A stretch of DNA of 48,580 nucleotides from Planctomycetales bacterium (GCA_007126245.1 SLBP01000069.1:1-48580); one strand, 5' to 3'; shown: positions 3,487 to 28,240, counted from the first letter of the stretch. The notes: a model not told the origin generated them from the sequence alone. Numbers and translations: made by a program.

Positions 3487-3751
3487 GCTGGATCGCTTCC
3501 TGGTCGGAGACCAATTGGAACACCGTCGTCCCATCCACGGCCTCCCGCCTCGCCGCCTGGCCCGAGGCTCGCTGGACGAGTGCGCAGAGGGCAGGGCCCT
3601 CAGTTTGCTCGGAGATGAAGTCGACGCTGCCATCTGCGAAGGCGGCGTGAAATCCGTTGCTGCAGAGGTCGCCCAGGTGGGCAAACGGGTCCTCCGGATC
3701 GAAGGAAAAATCACGCCTGGTCCACGGAACCTCCCGCTTGGCTTCGCCCAA
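3487..3751 (-). pseudogene. decayed C-terminal fragment of a sixth DUF1559 module (out of frame with the giant upstream ORF)
   Basis: The first 88 codons of track ORF 3158..3751 (AKREVPWTRRDFSFDPEDPFAHLGDLCSNGFHAAFADGSVDFISEQTEGPALCALVQRASGQAARREAVDGTTVFQLVSDQEAIQ) are nearly identical to the end of DUF1559 module 3 in the giant protein. The DNA at 3487-3760 is about 95% identical to 5575-5840. About 360 bp relative to 5850-6190 is missing near 3760, which breaks the frame. Confidence 0.6.
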
Positions 3752-4320
3752 AAGGATTGTGCTCCTCGCCGGGCCCCTGGAGAACGGCGGGTGGATAGCC
3801 GCGGCGGCTGTCGTGATACGAAGTCAGGCCAAATACGAGCTTGCGAAGGCGACTTGCCGTCTCCGAATCGGGCAGAGATGGGCGTTCGGCAGTCCAGCTC
3901 GTGATGTCGTCCGCGGTGCCGTCCTCCCCGTCGGGACCCAGCGACCAGATGAGCGGCTTCTCGCTGTCGGTGCCGCGGGTGGGCGGGTGTTCGTACCGGT
4001 ACTCGTTTCCCCAGGGGTCGCGGGGGACGACGTCGGACCGCACGTAGGGACCGTTCCAGGCCGCGTCTTCCGGCAGGCCGGCGGGCCGTTCGATCAGCGC
4101 ATGCAGGCCTTCCTCCGTGGTGGGATAACGGCCGCAGTCGAGCCGGAATAGCTCCAGGGCCTGCTGGAGATTCTGGATTTGCTTCTGGGTCGATATGTGC
4201 TCCTTGTCGGGCCGAACTGTCTGTTTGATGATTACCTCCACGCCCGCCTTGCTGAGTACATCGAGGAGCTCTCGAACTGACGTATAAGGGGTATCAGCTG
4301 AGGCCTCGACGATCGTTCGG
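3487..4320. repeat. intragenic segmental duplication, copy B (GspG-like domain 2 + truncated DUF1559 module 5 and remnant)
   Basis: See copy A. Matching runs include 3761-4180 vs 6161-6580 and 3487-3750 vs 5581-5840. Confidence 0.7.
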
Positions 4321-7300
4321 GCGGGCTGCCGGTCTTCGAGCAGTTGGCGTAACGCTACCAGGTCGTACCGCCGACCGTCGACGCGGATCGCCCCGCTGGC
4401 GTCGATCTCGATTACCGGCCAGTCTATCTCATCCACCGAAGAGCGCGGCGGCGCGGGAGGGGGAGCGGCCAATTCGAATTTCGTGGCGCCGTCGACGGTC
4501 TCCCGCTTCACCGGCTGGCCCGAGGCCCGCCGGAAGAGCACCGAGAGAGCGTCTCCTTCGGTCTTCTCGGAAACGAAGGAGACGCTGCCGTCGGCGAAGA
4601 GGGCATGGAAGCCACCGGGGAAGTAGCTGCCCAGCTCGGGCAACGGCTCGTCCGGATGGAAGGGGAGATCCCCCGGTTTCGTCCAGGGGACCTCCCGCTC
4701 TGCCTCGACCAGGAGGATAGTATTCGACGTGCCGTCAAAGAACGTGGTAATCGGTACTCCCTCGTTCTCCCGCTGAGCGGCATCCGCCGGAGGTGCAATA
4801 GACGCAGATCCGCTCATTCCCCCCATTTCCATAGGCCTCTGTTGGGGCGGCGACGGGTCCCAGGCGGTGCCCGGGCCAACAAGGGCGAACACCGAGGTAT
4901 TCGTCGACTCGTCCGTGTCCTGCGGGGAACGGTAGACTTCGGGCATCTGGTCAAGCAGCGCGAGATTGTGCGGGCTGTCCCAGGGCTCGTCGCGGCGGTA
5001 CTGCTCGTACAGGTCCGCGGCATCGAGGAACGGCAGGAGCGCTATCCGCCAACTGTAAGAGGTGTCGTTCGGCCCACGGAGGGTCGCAGGTGGGAACCTC
5101 CCGTGCATGTCGTGGTATTCGTGCAGCGCAATGCCGAGCTTCGCGAGACGCCCGGCTGCCTCCTGCCGGAGACTCGTCTCGGGAGAAAGGTCGGGCTGGC
5201 CGGCGGGAAACGACGGCGGCTTCGTTGCCGGTCCGACTCCGACGCGGCGCAAGTCCCAGACCTCATGGCGTCCGTCCCCCGCGGAGTCCATGGCGGCGGG
5301 CCGCTCCCTCCCCTCCGGGTCGATAGCAATCCGCAGGCGATGGAGGTCCAGTTCATAGATCGCCGCAAAACTGTGCTCCCGGCCACGAGACGTTGAGATC
5401 AGGTCGATCGCCTGCCGCTGGGGATCGAGCTCGAAGCGGCCGACGCGAATGGTATCTTGGCCGCGATCCCATTCCACCAACTCGTACCGGTCCTCTCGAA
5501 ACGTGACCGTTCGCGGTCCGGAACGGAGCTGGACCCGCTCCTGGCCACCGCGCATCACGGAAAGGAATTCCCAGGTCCCCTGGATCGCTTCCTGGTCGGA
5601 GACCAATTGGAACACCGTCGTCCCATCCACGGCCTCCCCCCTCGCCGCCTGGCCCGAGGCTCGCTGGACGAGTGCGCAGAGGGCAGGGCCTTCAGTTTGC
5701 TCGGAGATGAAGTCGACGCTGCCGTCCGCGAAGGCGGCGTGAAATCCGTTGCTGTAGAGACCGCCCAGGTGGGCAAACGGGTCCTCCGGATCGAAGGAAA
5801 TGTCGTCAGGTCGGGTCCACGGAACCTCCCGCTTCGCTTCGACCAGAAGGATCGTGTTCATCGCGCTGTCATGCATCAAGGGGAGGGGCACCCCCTGCGC
5901 AGGGGCTTCGTCCGCTGGGGGCACATTCAATCCGGCGTCCACGAGTTCTTCAGTGCACGGCGGGTCCCAGGCCGTGCCGGGACCCACGAGCGCAAAGACC
6001 GAAGTGTTTGTCGAGTCTTCCGCGTCTCGTGGGGAACGGTAGACCTCGGGCATCCTGTCCAGGAGGGCGAGGTTGTGGGGGCTGTCCCAGGGCTCGTCGC
6101 GGCGGTATTGGCTGTAGAGATCGCTCTCGCCGACCATGGGGAGCAGTGCCACCCGCCAACTGTAGGGTTCCTCGCCGGGCCCCTGGAGAACGGCGGGTGG
6201 AAAGCCGCGGCGGCTGTCGTGATACGAAGTCAGGCCAAATACGAGCTTGCGAAGGCGCCTTGCCGTCTCCGAATCGGGCAGAGACGGGCGTTCGGCAGTC
6301 GAGCTTGTGATGTCGTCCGCCGTGCCGTCTTCTCCATCCGGACCTGAGGACCAGAGAAGCGGCTTCTCGCTATCGGTGCCGCGGGTGTGCGGGTATTTGT
6401 ACCGATACTCGTTGCCCCAGGGATCGCGGGGGACGGCGTCGGACCGCACGTAGGGACCGTTCCAAGCGGCATTCTCCGGCAGGCTACTGGGCCGTTCGAT
6501 CAGCGCGTGCAGGCCTTCCTCCGTGGTGGGATAACGGCCGCAGTCGAGCCGGAAGAGCTCCAGTGCCTGCCGCAGGTTCTGGATTTGCGTCTGGGCCGAA
6601 ATGTGATCGATCTGATCCTTGTCAGGCTGAAGTGCCCGTCGTAAGAGAGTGACTTCCACGCGCATGCGGGTGAGTAGCTCGAGGATCTCCCTAATCGGCG
6701 CGTAAGGGGTATCGGGCGAGGCTCGGATGAGTGCTCGGCGAGGCCTCTGATCTTCAAGCAGTTGGCGAAACGCTACCAGGTCGTACTGTTCGCCGTCGAC
6801 GCGGATCGCCCCGCTGGCGTCGATCTCGATGACGGGCGGCGCACGCGGCCGCGCGGGAGGGGGAGCGAGCAGCTCGAATACAGTCGCGCCGTCGACGGTC
6901 TCCCGCTTCACCGGCAGGCCCGAGGCCCGCCGGAAGAGCGCCGAGAGAGCGTCTCCTTCGGTCCTCTCGGAAACAAAGGAGACGCTGCCGTCGGCGAAGA
7001 GGGCATGGAAGCCACCGGGGAAGTAGCCGCCCAGCTCGGGCAACGGCTCGTCCGGATGGAAGGGGTAATCCTCCGGTTTCGTCCAGGGGATCTCCCGCTC
7101 CGCCTCGACCAAGAGAATGGTATTCGATGTGCCGTCACGGATCTCTTGAATTGGCACTCCTTTGGCATCGGCCGGAAGCCCTCCCCCCATCGCCATTGTC
7201 ATCATTGCCCTTGTTGTAGCCGGGTCCCAGACAGTGCCGGGGCCGACGAGGGCGAAGACCGAGGTGTTGGTCGAGTCGTCGACGTCCTTTGGGGAACGGT

Positions 7301-10190
7301 AGACCTCGGGCATGCGATCGAGGAGCGCCAAGTTGTGGGGACTGTCCCAGGGCTGGTCGCGGCGGTATTGCTCGTAGAGGTCGGCTGCTTCCAGGAACGG
7401 CAGCAGCGCCACGCGCCAACTGTAGGGCGTCTCGCCGGGGCCGGTAAGGACTGGGGGCGGAAAGCTGTGATGGGCATCGTGATAGTTGTGCAGGGCGATG
7501 CCGATTCGCGCCAATCGCCTGCCCGCCTCCTGTCGGAGTTCAGCTTCCGGATCGAGCGGTTCCTCGCTACGCGGCACCGGATCGGGACCGGCGGCGCCGT
7601 AATCGAAACCCGCCGGCGGGCGTCGCGGCGCGCGAGGGGGACCGGCCAATTCGAATTTTGTCGCGCCGTCGACGGTCTCCCGCTTCACCGGCTGGCCCGA
7701 GGCCCGCTGGACGAGCGCCGAGAGGGCGGCTGCGTCGCTCCTCTCGGAAACAAAGGAGACGCTGCCGTCGGCGAAGAGGGCATGGAAGCCTCCGGGGAAG
7801 TAGCCGCCCAACTCGGGCAGCGGCTCCTCCGGATGGAAGGGGAGATCCTCCGGTTTCGTCCAGGGAACCTCCCGCTCCGCCTCGACCAGGAGGATGGTGT
7901 TCATCGTGCCGTCAGGGATCGCGGAAAATGGCACTCCGTCGAGTCCGTGCGGAGTGGTATAGGCCGAGTGTGCGGATCCCATCATCCCCGCGCCTCCCAT
8001 CATCCCCGCCCCCGACATCCCCATAGGCATCTGCCTGGGCGGGGACGGGTCCCAGGCGGTACCGGGGCCGACGAGGGCAAAGACCGAGGTGTTGGTCGAG
8101 TCGTCGGCGTCCTTGGGGGAACGGTAGACCTCGGGCATGCGATCGAGGAGCGCCAAGTTGTGGGGACTGTCCCAGGGCTGGTCACGGCGGTATTGCTCGT
8201 AGAGGTCGGCTGCTTCCAGGAACGGCAGCAGCGCCACGCGCCAACTGTAGGGCGTCCCGCCGGAGCCGGTAAGGACCGGGGGCGGAAAACTGCGATGGGC
8301 ATCGTGATAGTTATGCAGGGCGATGCCGATCTGCTGCAACCGCCTGGCCGCCTCCTGCCGGAGTTCGGCCTCCGGATCGAGCGGTTCCTCGCTGGGGGGC
8401 ACGACTTGGGGTGGCGTCTCCGGGGCAACGCGACGCAGTTGCAGGAAAAGTACCGCAGGCGCATCGGCGCGGGGCTCGACCGATGTAGGTCGCTCGCCAT
8501 CCTCCTGCTGTTGCAGCGCGAGACGGAGGTGGTCGTTCTCCAGCGCGTAGATCCCGCGTTTGATCATCTCTCGGCCATCGGACTCTACCTCGTGCATGTC
8601 GATCGCCTTGCGTTCGGGATCGAGCGTGAACACACCGACAATGACAATCGTCTCGGACCGGCCCTCCATCTCCTCGATCAACTCGAACCGGTCATCCCGA
8701 AAGACTAGCCTGGGCGAGGTGAAGATGATCGAGCCAAGCAGTTCCCGCTTGCCCTGGATCACCGACGTGGCCTCCCAGGTACCCTGGATCGCCTCCCGGT
8801 CGGGCATGGTGGTCGGAAGCGTTACCGTGACGTTCCCCTCCTCGTCCACCTGGGCGTGTGCCCCGGCGGGGACCTCGACGCGCGTGGCCTTGCCGTCACG
8901 CACGATGGTAATCACGATCCCCAAGGCAACGGCCGCAGCCACGCCGGCCAGCGCCAGGCCCACTGCCGTGAGCAGGCGCGAGGGGCGCCAGCGGACCGGC
9001 TGGGTCGCTCTTGGCGGCGCGGCCGAGGGCTCCTCCGCCTTCGCCCCTGCCGCAACGACTCCCGCCAGGTCGGCATCTACGGTGAAGGGCGCCAACGCCG
9101 CGGCCAGCTCGGCGGGCGTGGCGAAGCGGTCGGCGGGGTCTTTGGCCAGGAGCCGCTCGACGATGGCCGCTACGCCGGCGGGCACGTGCGGGGCCAGCCG
9201 GCGGAGCGGCGGGGCCGTGGCGTGGACGTGGGCGTGGAGCTTCTCCAGCGTCCCCGAGTGCTCGGGGGCCATGAAAGGGGCCCGCCCGGTGAGGAGCTTG
9301 TAGAGCGTGCAGCCGAGGCTGTAGAGGTCGGCGCGGATGTCGACGGTGTGGCTGTCGCGGACCTGCTCGGGGGCCATGTAGTCGGCGGTCCCCATGGCCT
9401 GGCCGGTGGAGGTCATCTCCTCACCGGCGGCCGCCTCGGCGTTGAGCAGCGCGAGGCCGAGATCGAGGAGCTTCACCTCGCCCGCCGTGCTGAGCATGAC
9501 GTTCGAGGGCTTCACGTCGCGGTGGACGAATCCATGTTCGTGGACGTAGTCGAGGGCCAGGGCCGCCCGCCGCACGATCTCGCAGGCATCGGCGAGGGCC
9601 AGCGGTCCTCGCCGCCGAAGCAACTCGGCCAGGTCGCAGCCCTCGACGAACTCCATCACCAGCAGCATCTCGCCGTCGATCTCGCGGGCGTCGTAGGCGT
9701 GGACGATGTTGGGGTGGTTCAGCCGGCCGACGGCCTTCATCTCGCGGGCGAAACGGGCCAGGGCCTGGGGGTCGTCGAGCCGGTGCTTGGGGAGGACCTT
9801 CAGGGCCACGACACGGTCCAGCCGCGTGTGGAGGGCCAGGTACACGCGGCCCATCCCCCCGCGGCCCAGTTCCTCGATGACCTCGTACTCTCCCAGCATG
9901 CGGCCGCCTGCCATGCCCGCTTCGGCCGTTTCCCCTTCCCTGCCACCCATTGCCCGCACCCGCGCCAGCGCCAACCGGCACTGCGACTCCCCCTCGAACG
10001 GGTCGGTTGCCCCCGGCTGCCGGAGCTGCTCGACGAAGGTATCGGCGGCATCGTCGATGGTGGCGATTTCGGCCTGGCAGTCGGGGCAGGTTTCGAGGTG
10101 CTCCGCCACGGCCTCGGCCGCCCGTTCGTCGATCTTCCCCACCGCGTAGGCATGGAGCGCTTCGCGCCGCGGGCAGGTGATGCTGTTCAT
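3711..10190 (-). CDS. giant multidomain protein: N-terminal anti-sigma-like zinc finger + Ser/Thr protein kinase + TM helix + beta-rich domain + tandem pseudopilin-like modules (5x DUF1559 core, 2x T2SS GspG-like, 2x ExbD/TolR-like)
   Basis: Single 2159-aa ORF. N-terminus: C-x13-H-x3-C-x2-C (CPRREALHAYAVGKIDERAAEAVAEHLETCPDCQ). Kinase motifs: LGRGGMGRVYLA, VALKVL, HRDVKPSNVML, DLGLA, GTADYMAPEQ. TM helix: LLTAVGLALAGVAAAVALGIVITIV. DUF1559 motifs occur five times: IGIALHNYHD..FPP, WRVALLPFLE, DSTNTSVFALVGPGTAWD, DGTSNTILLVEAEREVPWTKP, GGFHALFADGSVSFVSE. GspG C-terminal-like segments occur twice (QIQNL.QALELFRLDCGRYPTTEEGLHALIERP...PRDPWGNEYRY). ExbD-like segments occur twice (VIEIDASGAIRVDG..YDLVA.RQLLED). 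Confidence 0.85.
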   Translation of the reverse strand: MNSITCPRREALHAYAVGKIDERAAEAVAEHLETCPDCQAEIATIDDAADTFVEQLRQPGATDPFEGESQCRLALARVRAMGGREGETAEAGMAGGRMLGEYEVIEELGRGGMGRVYLALHTRLDRVVALKVLPKHRLDDPQALARFAREMKAVGRLNHPNIVHAYDAREIDGEMLLVMEFVEGCDLAELLRRRGPLALADACEIVRRAALALDYVHEHGFVHRDVKPSNVMLSTAGEVKLLDLGLALLNAEAAAGEEMTSTGQAMGTADYMAPEQVRDSHTVDIRADLYSLGCTLYKLLTGRAPFMAPEHSGTLEKLHAHVHATAPPLRRLAPHVPAGVAAIVERLLAKDPADRFATPAELAAALAPFTVDADLAGVVAAGAKAEEPSAAPPRATQPVRWRPSRLLTAVGLALAGVAAAVALGIVITIVRDGKATRVEVPAGAHAQVDEEGNVTVTLPTTMPDREAIQGTWEATSVIQGKRELLGSIIFTSPRLVFRDDRFELIEEMEGRSETIVIVGVFTLDPERKAIDMHEVESDGREMIKRGIYALENDHLRLALQQQEDGERPTSVEPRADAPAVLFLQLRRVAPETPPQVVPPSEEPLDPEAELRQEAARRLQQIGIALHNYHDAHRSFPPPVLTGSGGTPYSWRVALLPFLEAADLYEQYRRDQPWDSPHNLALLDRMPEVYRSPKDADDSTNTSVFALVGPGTAWDPSPPRQMPMGMSGAGMMGGAGMMGSAHSAYTTPHGLDGVPFSAIPDGTMNTILLVEAEREVPWTKPEDLPFHPEEPLPELGGYFPGGFHALFADGSVSFVSERSDAAALSALVQRASGQPVKRETVDGATKFELAGPPRAPRRPPAGFDYGAAGPDPVPRSEEPLDPEAELRQEAGRRLARIGIALHNYHDAHHSFPPPVLTGPGETPYSWRVALLPFLEAADLYEQYRRDQPWDSPHNLALLDRMPEVYRSPKDVDDSTNTSVFALVGPGTVWDPATTRAMMTMAMGGGLPADAKGVPIQEIRDGTSNTILLVEAEREIPWTKPEDYPFHPDEPLPELGGYFPGGFHALFADGSVSFVSERTEGDALSALFRRASGLPVKRETVDGATVFELLAPPPARPRAPPVIEIDASGAIRVDGEQYDLVAFRQLLEDQRPRRALIRASPDTPYAPIREILELLTRMRVEVTLLRRALQPDKDQIDHISAQTQIQNLRQALELFRLDCGRYPTTEEGLHALIERPSSLPENAAWNGPYVRSDAVPRDPWGNEYRYKYPHTRGTDSEKPLLWSSGPDGEDGTADDITSSTAERPSLPDSETARRLRKLVFGLTSYHDSRRGFPPAVLQGPGEEPYSWRVALLPMVGESDLYSQYRRDEPWDSPHNLALLDRMPEVYRSPRDAEDSTNTSVFALVGPGTAWDPPCTEELVDAGLNVPPADEAPAQGVPLPLMHDSAMNTILLVEAKREVPWTRPDDISFDPEDPFAHLGGLYSNGFHAAFADGSVDFISEQTEGPALCALVQRASGQAARGEAVDGTTVFQLVSDQEAIQGTWEFLSVMRGGQERVQLRSGPRTVTFREDRYELVEWDRGQDTIRVGRFELDPQRQAIDLISTSRGREHSFAAIYELDLHRLRIAIDPEGRERPAAMDSAGDGRHEVWDLRRVGVGPATKPPSFPAGQPDLSPETSLRQEAAGRLAKLGIALHEYHDMHGRFPPATLRGPNDTSYSWRIALLPFLDAADLYEQYRRDEPWDSPHNLALLDQMPEVYRSPQDTDESTNTSVFALVGPGTAWDPSPPQQRPMEMGGMSGSASIAPPADAAQRENEGVPITTFFDGTSNTILLVEAEREVPWTKPGDLPFHPDEPLPELGSYFPGGFHALFADGSVSFVSEKTEGDALSVLFRRASGQPVKRETVDGATKFELAAPPPAPPRSSVDEIDWPVIEIDASGAIRVDGRRYDLVALRQLLEDRQPARTIVEASADTPYTSVRELLDVLSKAGVEVIIKQTVRPDKEHISTQKQIQNLQQALELFRLDCGRYPTTEEGLHALIERPAGLPEDAAWNGPYVRSDVVPRDPWGNEYRYEHPPTRGTDSEKPLIWSLGPDGEDGTADDITSWTAERPSLPDSETASRLRKLVFGLTSYHDSRRGYPPAVLQGPGEEHNPFGRSQAGGSVDQA
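5575..6660. repeat. intragenic segmental duplication, copy A (GspG-like domain 1 + DUF1559 module 3)
   Basis: Aligned by eye to 3487-4320 at roughly 92-95% identity, apart from one ~360-bp gap in the other copy. Both copies encode the same GspG-like and DUF1559 segments. Confidence 0.7.
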
Positions 10191-19694: not shown

Positions 19695-21218
19695 ATGAAC
19701 GCCCTCCGCTTCAGCTCGTTGGTGCTGTTGCTCTTCACGTGCGGGATGGGGCGGGCTTCGGCCGACGTGTTGCCGGCTCCGCCCGACATCCTGGTGATCA
19801 TGCCGGATCAGATGCGGGGCGACTGCCTCTCGATCCTGGACCATCCGGCCGTCCGCACGCCCCAGATGGACGAGCTGGCCCGCGGGGGCGCGCTGTTCCG
19901 GCGAGCCTACGCCACGGTGCCCTCGTGCATCCCGGCGCGGTATGCGATGCTCACAGGGCTTCACCCGCAGACGAGCGGCGTGGTTGGCTTTCGGCAGAGG
20001 CCGGTGACGCCCCCCACGATGCCCCAGGTTTTCCGCGACGCCGGCTACCTGACGGCCTTGGTGGGCCGATCGATGCACCAGGCCGATGGTCCCGAGGCCT
20101 TGGGATACGAGGTGGCCATCCGGGGCTCGACGTACGTGGAGGACGACGACTACGTCGACTTCCTCAAGGGGGTGCTGCCCCCACAGACGCCGCTGGGCAA
20201 GGCCCTGCACCGGGACGGCATCCGGGCGATGGTGACTGCCATGGGGTTGACCTACAACCATTGGCAAGCCGGGCCCTGGCCGTTGGACGACGACTGGCAT
20301 CCGACCTCCTGGATTGTCCGCAAGGCCCATCGGTTCGTCGACGAGGCCCCGACCGACCGGCCGCTTTTTCTGACCGCCTCGTTCTACGCCCCCCACCCGC
20401 CCCTCTTCCCGCCGCAGCGCCACTTTGATACCTATTGGTCCATGGAGCTGCCGCAGCCGGCGCGGGGCGAGTGGGTCCACTGGGACGAGCTGACCCCCGA
20501 GGGGAGCCACGGCGGCAGCCGCGTCCTGCTGGAAGGGGAGACGCTCCAGCGGGCCCAGGCCGGCTATTTTGGTTTGATCGAACACCTGGACGAGGCGATC
20601 GCCCCGCTGATCGCGGCCTTCCAAGACCGCAGCGAACGGGCGGGGCGGCGCTGGGTGATCCTCGTGACCTCCGACCACGGCGAGATGCTGGGCGACCACG
20701 GTTACTTCCGCAAGTGCGAACCTTATGAAGGGTCGGCGAACGTGCCTTTCATCGTCGGCGGCTCGGCGGACTGGGGCTTCCGCCGCGGTCTGCGGTCGTA
20801 CCGGCCGGTCTGCCTGGAGGACGTCATGCCGACGCTTGCCGAGCTTGCCGGAATCGCCTGCCCGCCGGTGGATGGCGTCAGCCTGGTGCCGCTGCTGCGG
20901 GGAGACGAGCCGTCGGTCCGCCCCTGGCTGCACCTGGAACATTCCCCCATCTATAGCGATGCCCAGGGCTTTCACTCGCTGACCGACGGGCGAATCAAGT
21001 ACATCTGGCGGCCCGCGGACGGGAGCGAACAGCTCTTCGATCTCAACGACGACCCCCGCGAAGAGCGCGACCTTTCCCGGGACCCGGGCCATAAGGACGC
21101 GCTCGAGCTCTGGCGAGGCCGGCTCATCGAGCGGTTGGCGCCGCGGCCCGAGGGGTTTTCGGACGGCGAACGGCTCATTCCCGGCCGGCCCTACCGTCCC
21201 TTGCAGCCGGGCGCCTAG
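19695..21218 (+). CDS. sulfatase (formylglycine-dependent arylsulfatase family) with signal peptide
   Basis: Track ORF. Signal peptide MNALRFSSLVLLLFTCGMGRASA. PDQMRGD motif. C-x-P-x-R signature in SCIPARYAMLTG. VTSDHGEMLGDHG in the C-terminal region. Confidence 0.85.
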   Translation: MNALRFSSLVLLLFTCGMGRASADVLPAPPDILVIMPDQMRGDCLSILDHPAVRTPQMDELARGGALFRRAYATVPSCIPARYAMLTGLHPQTSGVVGFRQRPVTPPTMPQVFRDAGYLTALVGRSMHQADGPEALGYEVAIRGSTYVEDDDYVDFLKGVLPPQTPLGKALHRDGIRAMVTAMGLTYNHWQAGPWPLDDDWHPTSWIVRKAHRFVDEAPTDRPLFLTASFYAPHPPLFPPQRHFDTYWSMELPQPARGEWVHWDELTPEGSHGGSRVLLEGETLQRAQAGYFGLIEHLDEAIAPLIAAFQDRSERAGRRWVILVTSDHGEMLGDHGYFRKCEPYEGSANVPFIVGGSADWGFRRGLRSYRPVCLEDVMPTLAELAGIACPPVDGVSLVPLLRGDEPSVRPWLHLEHSPIYSDAQGFHSLTDGRIKYIWRPADGSEQLFDLNDDPREERDLSRDPGHKDALELWRGRLIERLAPRPEGFSDGERLIPGRPYRPLQPGA

Positions 21219-23029
21219 CCGACGGAGATCGGCTGTCCCGCCGCCGAGGTGGCGTCGGGGTGCTCGGCCACCGCAGCGGGACGGTGCGTCGTGACGGAGT
21301 GGCAGAGGGCGGCCTCGGGGTGGTCGTCGCAGGCGGCATTGCGCTCGTAGAAGGTGGGCGGCTCGTAGGTCCATCCCTGGGCCAGCCGCCGCTCTTCCTG
21401 GCGGATCTTCCGCAGCACATAAAGCCCGCCGACCCCCGAGGCCAGTCGCGACTTGAGTCCGAACTCGGCGTGCAGGTCGGCGAGGATGCGGGCGATCTTC
21501 TCGTGCATCGCCGGGTTCTTCCGGTAATACCGCCGCGCGGCACCCAGGAGGGCGGAGAACTGCACGGGAAGGTCGCGGGCCTCCCAGGCGAAGCGGTCGC
21601 GGATCCGCGCGTCGGGGTGGTTTTTGTAACGCTTCCAGCCGGCCAGCGTGGTTCGCACGATCCGCATCACGCTGGGCCCGTTGACTTCGAAGTCCCGGGT
21701 GAAGGCGCGGACCATCATCTCCGCCTCGGCCTTGGGAGGGATGTGCGGGTGGCGGTAGTTGAGGTACTCTTGGCCGTGGATGTCGCCGTGCTCGAATTCG
21801 GCGGGATCTTTCATCCGCCCTTCGGCCGAGAGCCGGGCATAGAGGGGGGTGCCGGGAATCGGTGTGTAGAGCATGAACTGGTGGAAGTCCGTGTCGTAGG
21901 CCGCGGCGTAGTCGATCACCCGATCGATGTTTTCCGGGGTGTGCTCGTCCAGAGCGATGATCGAGGAGCCGAGGACGCGGATGCCGTGCGACTGGAGTTT
22001 CCGGACCAGCGCCGGCACGTCGATGCCGTGGAGCTTGCGGTACTGGCTGTTCTCTCCTTCCAGGCCCATCCAGACCCAGGATACGCCCAAGCGGACCAAC
22101 TCGTCGACGCTGTACGAGGTGAGCACGTTCGCGGAGCTGAAGACGTATAACGACCAGGGCTTGTTCTCCCGCTCCATGAGCTCCATCAGCCGTAGGGCCC
22201 GCTTGCGGTGCAGGAGGAAGTTCTCGTCCATCATGAAGAAGGAGCGGACCTGCATCCGCGCTGCGAGCTGCTCCATGATCTCGAAGAGCTCGTCGCCGCT
22301 GGAATAGAAGTCCACGAACTTTCCCTTGCCGCCGAACATGGCCGAGGTGGAGCAGAAATCGCACCCCAAGGGGCAGCCGACCGAGGGGATCACGGTCGCG
22401 GCCACGTCGCCGGGTTTTTCGGGGCAAGTGATGCCCGAATTGCGGGTGCCGTGGCCGGAGATGATCGCCGGATGGCGGACCGGCTGCTTCGTCTCCTCGC
22501 CCAAGTACCGGCGGAACCAGCGGACCCCTTCACCCTTGACGACGAAATCGGCGTCGACCTGCTCGTGGATGTCGGGCAAGTTAGCGACGTGCCCGCCGAT
22601 GACGATCTTGGCCCGCGGCAGGTAGCGGCGGACCAGGGCGCACATCTTCCGCACCTTGCCGACGTTGGGGATGATGGAGCTGATGCCTACCACGTCGTAG
22701 TCGTTGTCGCGGATCTCCTGGATGAAGCGGTCCATCGTGGGGAAGTCGAGCAGCACACAGGGGGCGGCGATGTTTGCCTGGATGAGCATCAGGCCCCAGC
22801 TGCGGTGGAACATCCGCAAGGAGAAGGGGCCCTGCACGCGGGTGACCTGGTTGTGGTACAGCTCCATGGGGTTCATCGCCCGGCCGCCGTACTCGTCGTC
22901 CTGCGCGTAGGGGCCGAAGACGCTGCTGAGCAGGACCTTGGCCTGCGAGCCCAACGGGTGCGGGGCAGCGGAAGCCTCAGCGGCAGGCGCGGAAGGGACG
23001 ACCGGTAGCTCGTGGTGGTTGGCGATCAT
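21215..23029 (-). CDS. B12-binding-domain radical SAM protein (class B rSAM)
   Basis: Track ORF 21215..23347, with the start taken at the internal ATG 23029 (MIANHHELPV...). N-terminal cobalamin-binding-like Rossmann region (KVLLSSVFGPY...DVVGISSII...KIVIGGHVA). CxxxCxxC motif (CPLGCDFCS). ~250-aa C-terminal extension. Confidence 0.75.
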   Translation of the reverse strand: MIANHHELPVVPSAPAAEASAAPHPLGSQAKVLLSSVFGPYAQDDEYGGRAMNPMELYHNQVTRVQGPFSLRMFHRSWGLMLIQANIAAPCVLLDFPTMDRFIQEIRDNDYDVVGISSIIPNVGKVRKMCALVRRYLPRAKIVIGGHVANLPDIHEQVDADFVVKGEGVRWFRRYLGEETKQPVRHPAIISGHGTRNSGITCPEKPGDVAATVIPSVGCPLGCDFCSTSAMFGGKGKFVDFYSSGDELFEIMEQLAARMQVRSFFMMDENFLLHRKRALRLMELMERENKPWSLYVFSSANVLTSYSVDELVRLGVSWVWMGLEGENSQYRKLHGIDVPALVRKLQSHGIRVLGSSIIALDEHTPENIDRVIDYAAAYDTDFHQFMLYTPIPGTPLYARLSAEGRMKDPAEFEHGDIHGQEYLNYRHPHIPPKAEAEMMVRAFTRDFEVNGPSVMRIVRTTLAGWKRYKNHPDARIRDRFAWEARDLPVQFSALLGAARRYYRKNPAMHEKIARILADLHAEFGLKSRLASGVGGLYVLRKIRQEERRLAQGWTYEPPTFYERNAACDDHPEAALCHSVTTHRPAAVAEHPDATSAAGQPISVG

Positions 23030-23505
23030 CAAGGTACCTGTGGTGCGAGTCGGTTCAGGAGAGCAGCAGCACACCGTCCGGGACACGCTGCGCGCGTCCC
23101 CGTGTGCCGGCTCTCGGATTATACGACTCCTCGGCTCCCGACCAGCGCCCACTCTGTTTGCGCCGCGTAAAGGATGGGTAATACTTCCGTGCGTATCACC
23201 CGTAGGAGTGGTTCTGCGGCACCCTGGTCGGATTAGTCTGCGGTTGTTTTGGGGGAGGTGCGGTGCGACACGGAGAGCGTTTCCGCCGCGCCGGAGGGCC
23301 GACGGCAGCCAGGATTCCGAAAACGGCTGCCCCTTCGCAGAAGCCACTCCCGGCCCCCGAGCTGGCTCGATATCGAGTACCTCGGCCGTCCCTTGGATCT
23401 GAGGGGAAACGAGAGCAAAGGGCGCGATGGAGGGAGCGATGCGGCGCGAATGGAAAGGAAACAGGATGGGGGGCTGCCCGGCGGGCTATCGCCTGCCGTC
23501 GTCTT

Positions 23506-24051
23506 CTAGGAGCGTTCCGTCTCGCGGCGGGTCTGCTGAAGGTACTGCTCGAGGATGACGGGGACGCGGTCGGGCGTCACCTGGGCATGGACGTCGTCGT
23601 CTACGGTCATTACGGGAGCCAGCCCGCAGGCGCCGATGCACCGCGAGGCCTCCAGCGAGAAGACGCCGTCGGTGCTCGTCTCGCCGAAGGTGATCCCCAG
23701 CTCGTCGCGGAGCTTCTGGGCCACGCGGTCGGCCCCCTTGACGTAACAGGCCGTTCCCAGGCAAACGTTGATGAGGAACCGCCCCCGAGGCTGGAGGCGG
23801 TAGTAGTGGTAGAAGCTGGCCACCCCGGCGACCTTGGCGGCGGGGACCTGGAGGAGTTGGGCCACGGCGTCGAGGTGGGCGGCGCCCAGGTAGCCGAAGT
23901 GGCCCTGGACCTTGTGGAGGACGGCGATCAGGTGACTGGCGGGCTCGTCGCCGGTGCGGCATCCGCCGATGAAAGCGGCCAGCTCTTCGCCGAGGATCTC
24001 TCGGCTTTGCCCCTCGACCTCGTGCCAGTTGTCGGTGCTGTGACAGCTCAT
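23506..24051 (-). CDS. NuoE-like [2Fe-2S] thioredoxin-fold subunit of multimeric [FeFe]-hydrogenase (HydC/HndA-type)
   Basis: Track ORF 23506..24303, with the start at ATG 24051 (MSCHSTDNWHEV...). That ATG overlaps the HydA stop (ATGA) and is preceded by GAGGT. NuoE-type Cys pattern: C..C...(CLGTC)...C (GGCRTG..., NVCLGTACYVKG, CIGACGLAPV). Confidence 0.8.
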   Translation of the reverse strand: MSCHSTDNWHEVEGQSREILGEELAAFIGGCRTGDEPASHLIAVLHKVQGHFGYLGAAHLDAVAQLLQVPAAKVAGVASFYHYYRLQPRGRFLINVCLGTACYVKGADRVAQKLRDELGITFGETSTDGVFSLEASRCIGACGLAPVMTVDDDVHAQVTPDRVPVILEQYLQQTRRETERS

Positions 24052-25808
24052 CGAATACCTCGCGGCAGTTTGGCCTGGTAGCGGGTGTGCAGGAGTTGGT
24101 GGGCCTTTTCCGAGCCGGGCTCGCCGAGGAAGTTCTCGTAGAGCTCGGCGATGGCGGGGTTCTCGTAGGATTCGCGGAGGGTCTTGCCCTCGTCGATCTG
24201 GTAGAGAGCGCCCCCCCGCTTGCGGAGCAAGTCGGGATCGAGGACCTTCACGCCCCGCGGCGGGTAGGGCTGGCCGCCGCCGCCGACGCAGCCGCCCGGG
24301 CACGCCATGACCTCGATGACGTGGTATTTCTTTGCGCCCGAGGCCACCTGGTCGAGGAGGACCTTGGCGTTTGTCAGGCCGTTGGCCACGCCCACGTGGA
24401 CGTTGTGCTCGCCGATGGCCACGTAGGTCTCGCGAAGCCCTTCCACGGCGCGGACCTCAGTGAACTCGATTCGGGGGCCGGGCTTGCCGGTGATCAGGCG
24501 GCTGGCAGCCCGCAGCGTAGCCTCCATGACGCCTCCCGTGGTGCCGAAGATGTCGCCGGCCCCGCTGGCCGTCCCCAGCGGCGAGTCGAACTCCCCGTCG
24601 GGCAAGGCGCGGAAGCCGACGCCGTAGCACTGGATCATCCAGGTCAGCTCGCGGGTGGTGAGCACGGCGTCGGTGTAAGGGATGCCGGTCTCGTCCACGT
24701 GCTCCTGGCGGGCGGCCTCGTACTTCTTGGCCACGCAGGGCATGACGGCGACCATGAAGACGCGCTTGGGGTCGATCCCCTTTTGCCGGGCGTAATAGGT
24801 TTTGGCGAGCACCGAGAGCATGCTCATCGGCGACTTGCAGGTGGAGGCGTGGGGGACCAGATCGGGGTAGAACTTCTCCAGAAAGTTGATCCATCCGGGA
24901 GAGCAGGAGGTGATCATCGGCAGCGGCCCCTCCTTGAGCCGAGCCAGAAATTCGTGCGCCTCCTCGACGATGGTCAGGTCGGCGCCGAGGTCGGTGTCGA
25001 AGACGGCGTCGAAACCCAGGCGGCGCAGGGCGGTGACCATCTTACCCGTGGCGGGCGTTCCCGGCGCCAGGCCGAAGCCTTCGCCGATGGCCGCGCGGAT
25101 CGAGGGGGCCGTCTGCACGACGACGTGCAGGGCGGGGTCCGCCAGGGCCTGCCAGATGCGTTCCGTGCTGCTCTTTTCCAGGAAGGCGGCCGTGGGGCAG
25201 ACGTTGATGCACTGCCCGCACTGGATGCAGACCGATTCGTCCATCGGCGACAGAGCGGCCGGCCCCACCACGGTCGTGAAGCCGCGGCCGTGCTGGCTCA
25301 AGTTGTAGACCCCCTGCACCTCGGCGCAGACGCGGACGCACCGCCCGCAGAGGATGCACTTCTCCGCGTTGCGGACGACCGAGGCGCTCGAGTCCTCGAG
25401 GGGGAACTGCTTGCGGCGGCCCTCGAAGAGCCGCTCGCGGACGCCCATCGTGTAGGCCATGTTCTGCAGCTCGCAGTTGCCGTCGCGCTCGCAGGTCTGG
25501 CAGTCCTTGGGGTGGTTGTCCAGGATCAGCTCGACGACGTCGCGCCGCGCCTGGCGGATTACCGGGGAGGTCGTCTGCACCTCCATCCCCTCCCAGACCG
25601 CCTGGCTGCACGAGGCCATGAAGTGGCCCATGCCCTTGACGTCGACGATGCAGACCCGGCAGGAGCCGGCTAGGCTCAGGTCGGGGTGGTAGCAGAGGCG
25701 GGGGATGTAGATACCGAGCTGCTCGGCGGCCTCCATGATCGTGGTGCCGGCGGGGACGGTGAGCTCGGTTTCGTCGATCGTGACGCGCACTTGTTGTTTC
25801 TGGGACAT
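24048..25808 (-). CDS. hydA: [FeFe]-hydrogenase catalytic subunit HydA (M3 architecture: 2Fe-2S + His-ligated 4Fe-4S + 2x 4Fe-4S + H-domain)
   Basis: Track ORF. H-cluster motifs: L2 MPCVAKKYE and L3 EVMACPGGCVGGGGQP are canonical. L1 reads TSCSPGW rather than TSCCPxW. N-terminal 2Fe-2S ferredoxin (C..C..C), HPKDCQTCERDGNCELQ, and two CxxCxxCxxxCP motifs are present. Confidence 0.9.
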   Translation of the reverse strand: MSQKQQVRVTIDETELTVPAGTTIMEAAEQLGIYIPRLCYHPDLSLAGSCRVCIVDVKGMGHFMASCSQAVWEGMEVQTTSPVIRQARRDVVELILDNHPKDCQTCERDGNCELQNMAYTMGVRERLFEGRRKQFPLEDSSASVVRNAEKCILCGRCVRVCAEVQGVYNLSQHGRGFTTVVGPAALSPMDESVCIQCGQCINVCPTAAFLEKSSTERIWQALADPALHVVVQTAPSIRAAIGEGFGLAPGTPATGKMVTALRRLGFDAVFDTDLGADLTIVEEAHEFLARLKEGPLPMITSCSPGWINFLEKFYPDLVPHASTCKSPMSMLSVLAKTYYARQKGIDPKRVFMVAVMPCVAKKYEAARQEHVDETGIPYTDAVLTTRELTWMIQCYGVGFRALPDGEFDSPLGTASGAGDIFGTTGGVMEATLRAASRLITGKPGPRIEFTEVRAVEGLRETYVAIGEHNVHVGVANGLTNAKVLLDQVASGAKKYHVIEVMACPGGCVGGGGQPYPPRGVKVLDPDLLRKRGGALYQIDEGKTLRESYENPAIAELYENFLGEPGSEKAHQLLHTRYQAKLPRGIR

Positions 25809-26032: not shown

Positions 26033-28240
26033 TCAAGTCCGCAGCACCGCGTCGAAGCGGCAGACCTCGAAGCAGCGGCCGCACTTGATGCAGCGGTCCT
26101 GGTCGATGACGTGGACCTCGCGGCGGTTGCCGTCGATGCAGTCCACCGGGCAGTTCTTCGCGCAGACGGTGCAGCCGACGCACTTCTCTTCGCTGATCTC
26201 GTAGTGGATCAGGGCCACGCACTTTCGCGAGGGACACCGCTTGTCGACGACGTGTGCCCGGAATTCCTCCCGGAAGTGCTCCAGCGTGCTCAGCACGGGA
26301 TTGGGCGCCGCACGCCCCAGCCCGCAGAGGGAGGCGTTCTTCACCAGGCGGGCCAGCCTCTCCAGTCGATCGAGGTCCTCCTCGGTGCCCTGCCCCCCCG
26401 TGATCCGTTCGAGCATCTCCAGCATCCGCGTAGTTCCCTCCCGGCAGGGAGTGCATTTGCCGCACGACTCGTCCTCGGAGAAGGTGATGAAGAACTTGGC
26501 GATGTCCACCATGCAGTCGTCTTCGTCCAAGGCGATCATGCCCCCGCTGCCCATGATGGAGCCGGCTTGGGCCAGGGTGTCGAAGTCGATGGAGGTGTCG
26601 AGCCAGGCGGCGGGGATGCAGCCGCCCGCCGGGCCCCCTGTCTGCACTGCCTTGAGCTGCTTGCCGTCGGCCATTCCCCCGCCGATCTCGTAGATCACCT
26701 CCCGCAGCGTGGTGCCGATGGGCACCTCGATGAGCCCGGTGTGTCGGATCTTGCCGGCCAAGGCGAAGACCTTCGTCCCCCCGCTCCGTTCGCTCCCCAG
26801 GCGGCTGAACCAGCCGGCGCCGTAGTTGATCACGGCGGTGGCGTTGGCGAAGGTCTCCACGTTGTTGATCACGGTGGGCTTGCCCCAGAGGCCGACCTCG
26901 GTCGGGTAGGGGGGGCGTACTCGCGGCTGGCCGCGCTCGCCCTCGATGGAGTGAATCAGCGCCGTCTCCTCGCCGCACACGAAGGCCCCCGCCCCGAGGC
27001 GGATCTCCAGGTCGAAATCGAACCCGGAGCCGAGGATGTTCTTACCCAGCAACCCCCATTCACGGCATGCCTCGATGGCTCGGCCAATCCGCTCGATGGC
27101 CAAAGGATACTCGGCACGGATATAGAAGAAGCCCCGCCGGGCGCCGATCGCAAAGCCGCCGATGATCATCCCCTCGATGACGTTCAAGGGATCCGACTCG
27201 AGCATGCTCCGGTCCATGAAGGCGCCGGGATCTCCTTCGTCGGCGTTGCAGATGATGTACCGGGTCTTCTCCGGCGCGGCAGCCGCCATGGACCATTTGG
27301 TGCCCGTCGGATATCCCCCGCCGCCTCGTCCGCGGAGGCGAGAGCGGGTGATCTCGTCGATGACCCACTTGGGATCGTTCTTCTCCAGCACGTGAGCCAA
27401 CGCCTGGAAGCCGCGGAAATGAAAGTATTCTTCGATGCTTGTCGGGTCGAGGACGCCGTTGTGACGCAGGGCTACCCGCGTCTGACGGTTGAAGAAGGCC
27501 ACGTCGCCGTAGAGCTCGAAGAATTTCCGGCCCACGGTCTTCTCGGCCACCTTGAGCCGATCGACAATCCTCCCCTTCTCCACGTGCTCATCGAGGATTT
27601 CGTCCAAGTCCGCGCGGTCGGTGATGCGATACAGGACTTTGTCGGGGCGAACCAGCAGGTGGGCCGTACGGCCCATCTCCGCCATGCCGCAGGCGCCGAA
27701 GCAGCTTGCCGGCGTAACGCGGACATCCCCCGGCGAGACCCCCCTCTCGCGGAGCTTCTCTTTGAGTACCTGGCGGAACGGCTCCGGGTCGGCCCAGCCA
27801 CAGCGGTGGCTTCCACAGGAGAGAAGCTCGTAGCGGGCGACCCCCTCGATCGGACCATCGAGCACATGGTCCAGAAGCGGTTCCCCCGCCAGGACGTGGC
27901 GCGTAAAGATCGGGTGCACCAGCTCGCGATCGACCAGTTCATACTTCACCGGCATCTTCCCCGGCATGAAGACGGAGACGATCGGCTCCCGGCTGCAGCG
28001 CCCCGTGCAGCCGGTCTGGTGAAGGACGATATCTTCCCGCCCGGAGGCGGCGATGTGCTTGCGGAACTCCTCGAAGACCGTCCGCGAGCCGGCGGCGTGC
28101 TCGCAGGTGGCTGAGCCGACCTGGACGACGATCTTCTCGGAGAGGGCACGCTGGCGGCGGTATTCGCCGGCACGAGCGAGCAGGGATTCGTATTGTTGAA
28201 CGACGGTACTGGTCACCTCGGCCCTCTCGGAAAGAGACAC
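26033..28240 (-). CDS. NuoF-like NAD(P)H-binding flavoprotein subunit of multimeric [FeFe]-hydrogenase (HydB/HndC-type) with extra N-terminal thioredoxin-like domains and C-terminal 2x[4Fe-4S]
   Basis: Track ORF with a GTG start. Motifs: GRGGGGYPTG (FMN/NADH), ESCGKCTPCREG (N3 cluster), C-terminal CVGCTVCAKNCP and CIKCGRCFEVC. Confidence 0.9.
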   Translation of the reverse strand: MSLSERAEVTSTVVQQYESLLARAGEYRRQRALSEKIVVQVGSATCEHAAGSRTVFEEFRKHIAASGREDIVLHQTGCTGRCSREPIVSVFMPGKMPVKYELVDRELVHPIFTRHVLAGEPLLDHVLDGPIEGVARYELLSCGSHRCGWADPEPFRQVLKEKLRERGVSPGDVRVTPASCFGACGMAEMGRTAHLLVRPDKVLYRITDRADLDEILDEHVEKGRIVDRLKVAEKTVGRKFFELYGDVAFFNRQTRVALRHNGVLDPTSIEEYFHFRGFQALAHVLEKNDPKWVIDEITRSRLRGRGGGGYPTGTKWSMAAAAPEKTRYIICNADEGDPGAFMDRSMLESDPLNVIEGMIIGGFAIGARRGFFYIRAEYPLAIERIGRAIEACREWGLLGKNILGSGFDFDLEIRLGAGAFVCGEETALIHSIEGERGQPRVRPPYPTEVGLWGKPTVINNVETFANATAVINYGAGWFSRLGSERSGGTKVFALAGKIRHTGLIEVPIGTTLREVIYEIGGGMADGKQLKAVQTGGPAGGCIPAAWLDTSIDFDTLAQAGSIMGSGGMIALDEDDCMVDIAKFFITFSEDESCGKCTPCREGTTRMLEMLERITGGQGTEEDLDRLERLARLVKNASLCGLGRAAPNPVLSTLEHFREEFRAHVVDKRCPSRKCVALIHYEISEEKCVGCTVCAKNCPVDCIDGNRREVHVIDQDRCIKCGRCFEVCRFDAVLRT

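Follow-up and report, generated by a model that had tools for sequence, protein, structure and literature searches.

The L1 motif of [FeFe]-hydrogenases, canonically TSCCPxW, contains two adjacent cysteines with different duties. In the algal enzyme CrHydA1 the cysteine that precedes the proline, C170, is one of the four ligands of the cubane, the [4Fe-4S] part of the H-cluster (Kertess 2017, PMC5855289). The same assignment has been made for CpIII, whose motif reads TSC221C222C223P: the cysteine next to the proline coordinates [4Fe-4S]H and the one before it is the proton-transfer cysteine (PMC12138974). In the HydABC hydrogenases the position has been named Cys299Tk/Ser301Aw, a ligand position of cluster A1, as the H-cluster [4Fe-4S] is called in that work (Katsyv 2023, PMC10021017). 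The second of these names records a natural exception: in the HydABC of A. woodii Ser301 replaces one of the cysteine ligands, and this electron-bifurcating complex is active and displays normal FTIR signatures (Katsyv 2023, PMC10021017).

The same exchange has been engineered. The C170S variant of CrHydA1 shows wild-type-like [4Fe-4S] occupancy and takes up the [2Fe] subsite slowly; after long maturation its H2 evolution reaches at most 231 µmol/min/mg, compared with 728 µmol/min/mg for the wild type. C170A fails to take up the [2Fe] subsite, whereas both C170S and C170D accept it (Kertess 2017, PMC5855289). A further natural occurrence of TSCSPGW was described in two trimeric, confurcating-type hydrogenases of the Melainabacteria ACD20 (Di Rienzi et al. 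2013). This was the sole match in a hydrogenase context when the literature was searched for the string TSCSP, and a phrase search for more reports of serine replacement found none. With regard to the lineage considered below, Thermogutta terrifontis, which belongs to the Thermoguttaceae and has been cultured, produces H2 by fermentation and possesses [FeFe]-hydrogenase genes (PMC5673643).

A planctomycete hydABC operon and its L1 motif

The DNA analysed here, referred to as the window, is a stretch of 48,580 nucleotides with a GC content of 67% from a Planctomycetales bacterium (GCA_007126245.1, SLBP01000069.1:1-48580). Its minus strand carries hydA (24048..25808), identified by Pfam, NCBIfam and PDB matches as the gene for an [FeFe]-hydrogenase catalytic subunit of 586 amino acids. 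The product comprises an N-terminal [2Fe-2S] domain, a NuoG-type [4Fe-4S] domain, a ferredoxin domain with two [4Fe-4S] clusters, the H-domain and a C-terminal tail that resembles the small subunit. The Pfam matches, Fe_hyd_lg_C (2.7e-91), Fe_hyd_SSU, Fer2_4 and NADH-G_4Fe-4S_3, are confined to Fe-S, H-domain and small-subunit domains, with no PAS or signalling domain among them. The protein scores 813.9 bits against the NCBIfam model NF040763, 'NADH-dependent [FeFe] hydrogenase, group A6', above the cut-off of 765; with the clostridial ferredoxin-hydrogenase model (cut-off 900) it attains 570.9 bits, and with TIGR04105, the model for monomeric B1 enzymes (cut-off 450), 183 bits. The latter score, together with an L1 motif that lacks a third cysteine, led to the rejection of membership in group B, the TSCCCP type exemplified by CpIII. 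The top PDB match is A. woodii HydA1 (7q4v_A, E=8.9e-173, residues 7-580).

The gene is flanked by two partners on the same strand. Upstream lies hydB (26033..28216), which encodes a NuoF-like flavoprotein of 727 amino acids from the called GTG start, within a frame that stays open to 28240. HydB harbours [2Fe-2S] domains at its N terminus, a module for FMN and NAD(H) and, at its C terminus, a region for two [4Fe-4S] clusters, the last marked by two CxxCxxCxxxC motifs at residues 679 and 709; it matches the Pfam families Complex1_51K, NADH_4Fe-4S and Fer4, and its top PDB match is A. woodii HydB (7q4v_B, E=3.1e-216). Downstream, hydC (23506..24051) specifies a NuoE-like, thioredoxin-like [2Fe-2S] subunit of 181 amino acids (Pfam 2Fe-2S_thioredx, 7e-47), whose PDB matches are the HydC subunits of T. 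kivui (8a6t_C) and A. woodii (7q4v_C), with E values of about 1e-36. The start of hydC overlaps the stop of hydA (ATGA). The order hydB-hydA-hydC recurs in 59 of 80 related loci, the other 21 containing a partial operon, possibly on account of short contigs. In all likelihood, therefore, the hydA product is the catalytic subunit of a HydABC-type hydrogenase (NuoE/NuoF-coupled, group A3/'A6') from a Thermoguttaceae-like planctomycete, a judgement that was formed jointly with that on the L1 serine discussed below.

Genes for the maturation factors hydE, hydF and hydG were sought and none was found within the 48.6-kb window. A radical SAM gene at 21215..23347 was considered and discarded, both as a maturase and as a component of the hydABC system: it is of the B12-binding type and its HpnJ/BchE-like matches are weak and far below cut-offs, the best being HpnJ with 73 bits where the cut-off is 578, and it adjoins hydABC in none of the 80 related loci.

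The L1 motif is located at 24891..24911 on the minus strand. Direct translation from 24911 to 24891 gives ACC TCC TGC TCT CCC GGA TGG, that is T300 S301 C302 S303 P304 G305 W306, in agreement with a sequence-only reading of the window, which had noted TSCSPGW with serine in place of the second cysteine. Ser303 is encoded by TCT at complement(24900..24902) and is preceded by Cys302, encoded by TGC (24903..24905, minus strand). As that reading had also pointed out, position 24901 holds G on the plus strand, and C in its place would yield TGT, a cysteine codon. The remaining two motifs, which it had described as canonical, are indeed so. L2, MPCVAKKYE (residues 356-364; 24717..24743, minus strand), includes Met356, Cys358 and Lys361, and L3, EVMACPGGCVGGGGQP (residues 499-514; 24267..24314, minus strand), includes Cys503 and Cys507.

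The register of these residues was taken from phmmer alignments to enzymes of solved structure, with which a four-way MAFFT alignment agrees. In the L1 region the query LPMITSCSPGWINF aligns without gaps with FPMFTSCCPGWVRQ of CpI (C299, C300), with FPMFTSCCPSWILA of T. kivui (C298, C299) and with LPMITSCSPGWIKF of A. woodii (C300, S301), and Pro304 and Trp306 fall on P301 and W303 of CpI. Cys302 thus corresponds to the proton-relay cysteine Cys299 of CpI. Ser303 occupies the [4Fe-4S]H ligand position, equivalent to CpI Cys300, CrHydA1 Cys170, T. kivui Cys299 and A. woodii Ser301. The sequence-only reading had proposed a comparison with reference enzymes; the roles it had assigned, proton relay for the first cysteine and cluster ligand for the second, are borne out by the alignments and by three publications (PMC5855289, PMC12138974, PMC10021017). 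In the MAFFT alignment C358, C503 and C507 match CpI C355, a cubane ligand, C499 and C503, the last of which bridges to the [2Fe] subsite; likewise, K361, M356 and M501 match K358, M353 and M497. The proton pathway aligns in full: C302, E283, S322, E286 and R290 are equivalent to CpI C299, E279, S319, E282 and R286. The cubane-ligand positions of HydA are taken by cysteines at L2 (Cys358) and L3 (Cys503 and Cys507), and by serine instead of cysteine at L1. Since A. woodii HydA1, an accepted member of the family, has this serine too, a rule that demands cysteine at every ligand position does not mark a true limit of the family. Read from translation and alignment, then, L1 of this HydA is a motif in which the relay cysteine is kept and the ligand cysteine is replaced by serine.

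A different register might be envisaged, in which the only cysteine left in the motif, Cys302, ligates the cubane and the relay position is either vacant or taken by Ser301, making the enzyme relay-less. The L1 loop has been described as flexible (PMC5855289), which lends this proposal some room. It is nonetheless highly improbable: the L1 alignments contain no gaps and hold Pro304 and Trp306 in step with CpI, the A. woodii structure puts Ser301 and not Cys300 at the ligand position, and neither a co-varying indel nor a compensating residue separates serine-type from cysteine-type sequences. The related suggestion that a shifted motif might leave all four cluster cysteines present fails on the same ungapped alignments, as Ser303 stays at the ligand position.

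A search for compensation was conducted by computing mutual information over the H-domain of 16 serine-type and 100 cysteine-type sequences. In this set no substitute cysteine or coupled column was found, the best other column reaching 0.21 bits compared with 0.58 bits at the site itself. Cys324 was examined as a compensating cysteine and set aside as not specific, cysteine being present there in 75% of serine-type and 55% of cysteine-type sequences; the query and A. woodii share Cys at this position, where T. kivui and CpI have Ala. At position 299 there is a weak bias towards Ile in serine-type and Phe in cysteine-type sequences. Met328, at the position of CpI Gln325, was inspected as a second oddity and proved ordinary, since 30 of 158 aligned sequences have Met there.

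Conservation and spread of the serine form

Two surveys of close relatives addressed the standing of Ser303. The best 120 database homologues, drawn from NCBI, ENA, JGI and Logan assemblies and 77-100% identical to the query, all contain TSCSPGW. When one genome was scanned for each GTDB species, 80 loci with 71-82% identity were obtained, and the motif is again TSCSPGW in every one; these loci are labelled mostly Thermoguttaceae, Pirellulales and Planctomycetaceae, with single bins of Hydrogenedentota, BRC1 and Phycisphaerae. At the nucleotide level the serine codon is TCG in 77 of the 80 loci and TCA in the other three, whereas the window has TCT. Both TCG and TCA lie a single step from tryptophan or stop codons and not from cysteine codons, which indicates that serine is the state of the clade and that the TCT of the window is a synonymous variant.

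These data bear directly on a suspicion raised by the sequence-only reading, namely that a single-base sequencing or assembly error conceals a true TGT codon and a motif TSCCPGW. TCT is indeed one transversion away from TGT. However, serine is found in all 120 homologues and in 80 loci that encode it by TCG or TCA, so that a base error is in practice excluded; its probability can be regarded as negligible. Moreover, an identical gene with TCT is present in GCA_007119795.1 (SKOZ01000050.1) and in ENA ERZ27301262, and the characterised A. woodii enzyme carries TSCSPGW. Ser303 is thus very probably a genuine residue kept by selection, an assessment made together with those on the HydABC type of the protein and on the cubane-ligand position.

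Across the 120 close homologues 237 of the 586 columns are invariant, and among them are Cys302, Cys358, Cys503, Cys507, Glu283, Ser322, Glu286, Arg290, Lys361, Met356 and Met501. This pattern is pertinent to another proposal of the sequence-only reading, a non-catalytic or sensory paralog, HydS-like or degenerate, in which the loss of a ligand would equal the loss of turnover. One of the four cubane cysteines is certainly absent, and the Melainabacteria pair with TSCSPGW also lacks an L3 cysteine (Di Rienzi 2013). In the planctomycete protein, by contrast, the relay cysteine, the glutamates, arginine and serine of the pathway, Lys361, both methionines and both L3 cysteines are intact as well as invariant. 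In sensory enzymes such as HydS (groups C/D) the relay cysteine is exchanged, the proton pathway is not maintained and the C-terminus bears a PAS or signalling domain; a role of this kind is at odds with the retention of the relay cysteine and pathway and with the lack of a PAS or signalling domain. The conserved hydB-hydA-hydC operon with NuoF/NuoE-type partners and the functional TSCSPGW of A. woodii argue in the same direction. A non-catalytic or sensory paralog is accordingly a very unlikely description of this protein.

The distribution of the serine form was explored further by an HMMER search through all 1.84 billion representatives clustered at 50% identity, which yielded 2860 proteins at E<=1e-30. 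Among the best 150 of these 2860, L1 reads TSCSPGW in 20, TSCSPAW in two and SSCSPGW in one, while 102 have CC before the proline. When the count is restricted to representatives near the query that are complete at all five key positions, the combination C-S-C-C-C occurs 14 times and C-C-C-C-C 98 times, so that the serine form accounts for approximately one in eight (∼12%). Named serine-type examples include Natronincola peptidivorans, one Clostridia MAG and one Actinomycetota MAG. Five serine-type representatives score 811-881 bits on the A6 model (with one at 747), as against 753-775 bits for five cysteine-type representatives. Small as this five-versus-five sample is, it suggests that the top scorers of NCBIfam A6 typically carry serine. 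Together with them, the serine-type sequences appear to make up a sub-family with representatives in Planctomycetota, Bacillota, Actinomycetota, Melainabacteria and other groups. A neighbour-joining tree built from 144 H-domains has a star-like shape and places the serine type on several branches; it is too weak for switches between cysteine and serine to be counted. The serine form is a known natural variant present across several phyla and not a rarity.

Serine as the probable fourth ligand: proposed mechanism and implications

Taken as a whole, the observations are best explained, with a high degree of confidence, by a HydABC-type HydA with a genuine Ser303 at the fourth cubane-ligand position, as in A. 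woodii. By analogy with that homologue, the cubane would have as ligands three cysteines, namely Cys358, Cys503 and Cys507 (the bridging one), and, in the manner of A. woodii Ser301, the O-gamma of Ser303. The [2Fe] subsite would be where H2 is formed or cleaved, just as it is in ordinary group A enzymes. Protons would travel by way of Cys302, Glu283, Ser322, Glu286 and Arg290, and electrons would reach the FMN of HydB through the accessory clusters of HydA. Flavin-based electron bifurcation or confurcation is the probable means by which the HydABC complex links H2 to NAD(H) and ferredoxin, the alternative being an enzyme that simply depends on NADH. For the window enzyme, ligation by the serine oxygen, activity and bifurcation are all inferred from the A. 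woodii homologue, and bifurcation also from the T. kivui complex.

The sequence-only reading had spoken of an unusual O-ligated cubane. Oxygen ligation gains credibility from the precedent of A. woodii Ser301; the epithet 'unusual' has to be abandoned, given that serine is found in about 12% of the complete near representatives. Alternatively, Ser303 may merely line the site, with the cubane anchored by three cysteines and the unique iron bound by water, hydroxide or another residue. Such an arrangement has some backing: C170A keeps about 60% [4Fe-4S] occupancy, for which coordination by solvent has been discussed (Kertess 2017, PMC5855289), and cryo-EM at ∼3 Å may not separate ligation by the serine oxygen from nearby solvent. 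Against it, the failure of C170A to accept the [2Fe] subsite that C170S and C170D accept indicates that an oxygen-donor side chain matters, the clade is strictly Ser and never Ala, Gly or Thr, and the authors of the A. woodii structure call Ser301 a ligand (PMC10021017). A serine that does not coordinate is therefore unlikely, and ligation by Ser303 is the reading retained here.

Whether the serine does more than substitute for cysteine is a separate matter. The impairment of the engineered C170S variant implies that serine is not automatically neutral, and the fact that more than 80 species strictly retain the residue, with three synonymous codons in use, is consistent with selection for serine. 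It is conceivable, although on balance doubtful, that serine ligation is an adaptive, lineage-defining trait of a HydABC sub-family as opposed to a neutral substitution. If it were adaptive, serine would serve to adjust either the potential of [4Fe-4S]H or the catalytic bias, for instance toward H2 evolution, the direction favoured by the engineered C170 variants, and would do so free of the penalty on maturation and activity seen in those variants.

Automated motif checks that demand TSCCPxW would wrongly call many HydABC hydrogenases defective, and the set flagged in error would include essentially all the sampled HydABC enzymes of Thermoguttaceae-like planctomycetes. The serine ligand of A. 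woodii is not a one-off: entire clades have the residue as a fixed feature, and it turns up in about one in eight of the complete near-family clusters. Natural pairs of serine and cysteine enzymes, A. woodii or the window enzyme on one side and T. kivui on the other, offer a ready system to study the effects of an O-for-S ligand exchange on potential, maturation and bias. The discovery itself is modest, because both the chemistry and a working example have already been published.

Comparison with described hydrogenases

Of the systems described to date, A. woodii HydABC(D) (PDB 7q4v, 7q4w, 8a5e) is the closest counterpart. The segment PMITSCSPGWI of its HydA1 is identical to that of the query, its L2 and L3 cysteines and proton pathway are the same, and its HydB and HydC are the best or near-best matches of the corresponding window proteins. 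The two organisms belong to different phyla, Bacillota and Planctomycetota, and the identity between the HydA proteins is in the mid-50s per cent at best, as judged from the closest 50%-identity representative (55%). The window further departs from A. woodii in its gene order, hydB-hydA-hydC, in that hydD was not seen, and in a HydB with an extra N-terminal stretch of about 135 amino acids that includes a thioredoxin-like [2Fe-2S] domain.

The bifurcating HydABC enzymes of T. kivui (HydA1, 8a6t; E=1.2e-171 to the query) and T. maritima (HydA, 7p5h) share the domain architecture and the type of complex. T. kivui HydA1 differs at the position of interest: its motif is the canonical TSCCPSW, in which Cys299 serves as the ligand where the query has Ser303. 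CpI of C. pasteurianum (E ∼1e-136) exhibits the same layout of F-domain and H-domain, and its H-cluster and proton-pathway positions align one to one with those of the query; it is, however, a monomeric, ferredoxin-dependent enzyme with TSCCPGW and Cys300, in contrast to the HydABC-type query with Ser303. The Melainabacteria ACD20 pair has TSCSPGW in common with the planctomycete protein, but there an L3 cysteine is changed to Ile as well, whereas the query keeps both.

CrHydA1 C170S reproduces the change from cysteine to serine at the very ligand position of the query, and demonstrates that the chemistry of serine can sustain binding of the cubane, insertion of [2Fe] and turnover. The variant is an artificial one of a minimal algal enzyme, with slow and partial maturation, lower activity and a bias to H2 evolution; the natural serine-type enzyme of A. 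woodii, on the contrary, is reported to be normal.

Residue 328 of HydA and a predicted protein with seven H-domain copies

Met328 of HydA (24825..24827, minus strand) adjoins the H-cluster and aligns to Gln325 of CpI, the hydrogenase of Clostridium pasteurianum. Methionine occupies this position in all 120 of the closest HydA database matches and, because it is also carried by 30 of 158 wider relatives, Met328 looks like ordinary family variation in these alignments. Outside the window, the representative library (protein representatives at 50% identity) contains P0121, a predicted protein of 4122 amino acids. This protein harbours seven copies of the HydA H-domain, six of which follow an exact 444-residue period, and its L1 motif reads TSCCASW, alanine replacing the motif proline. 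Two explanations are considered for P0121, a tandem poly-hydrogenase and an artefact of assembly.

Two large open reading frames

A single ORF of 2159 amino acids (3711..10190, minus strand) encodes an unusual fusion of a Ser/Thr protein kinase to repeated planctomycete pseudopilin-like modules. Besides the kinase domain, it displays a zf-HC2 (anti-sigma-like) motif at the N-terminus, four DUF1559 stretches, two stretches resembling type II secretion pseudopilin G and one ExbD-like stretch. On the plus strand, the 954-residue product predicted from 41281..44145 matches Hsp70-type chaperones (HscA/DnaK) solely over its first ∼300 residues, with scores far under the cut-offs; its sequence marks it as an Hsp70-like ATPase whose long C-terminal part lies outside the chaperone match.

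Gene spacing and the neighbour of hydC

The hydA stop and hydC start codons share the tetranucleotide ATGA (24048..24051, minus strand), an overlap that suggests translational coupling of the two genes. In contrast, hydB and hydA are separated by 224 nt. Directly downstream of hydC lies a B12-binding radical SAM gene (21215..23347, minus strand), whose identification as a HydE or HydG maturase was rejected: its matches are instead HpnJ/BchE/P-methyltransferase-like, weak and far under the family cut-offs. This gene adjoins hydABC in none of the 80 related loci from a scan of one genome per GTDB species.

The N-terminal extension of HydB

HydB (26033..28240, minus strand) is longer at its N-terminus than the Acetobacterium woodii subunit by ∼130 amino acids. 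Residues 1 to about 135 include an extra thioredoxin-like [2Fe-2S] ferredoxin-type domain, matched by Pfam 2Fe-2S_thioredx (residues 35–90) and by an NCBIfam 2Fe-2S ferredoxin model (residues 48–126), and therefore HydB may carry one cluster more than in the solved complexes. The alignment with 7q4v_B, the HydB chain of the A. woodii HydABC structure, starts by pairing residue 136 of the HydB encoded here with residue 5 of that chain.
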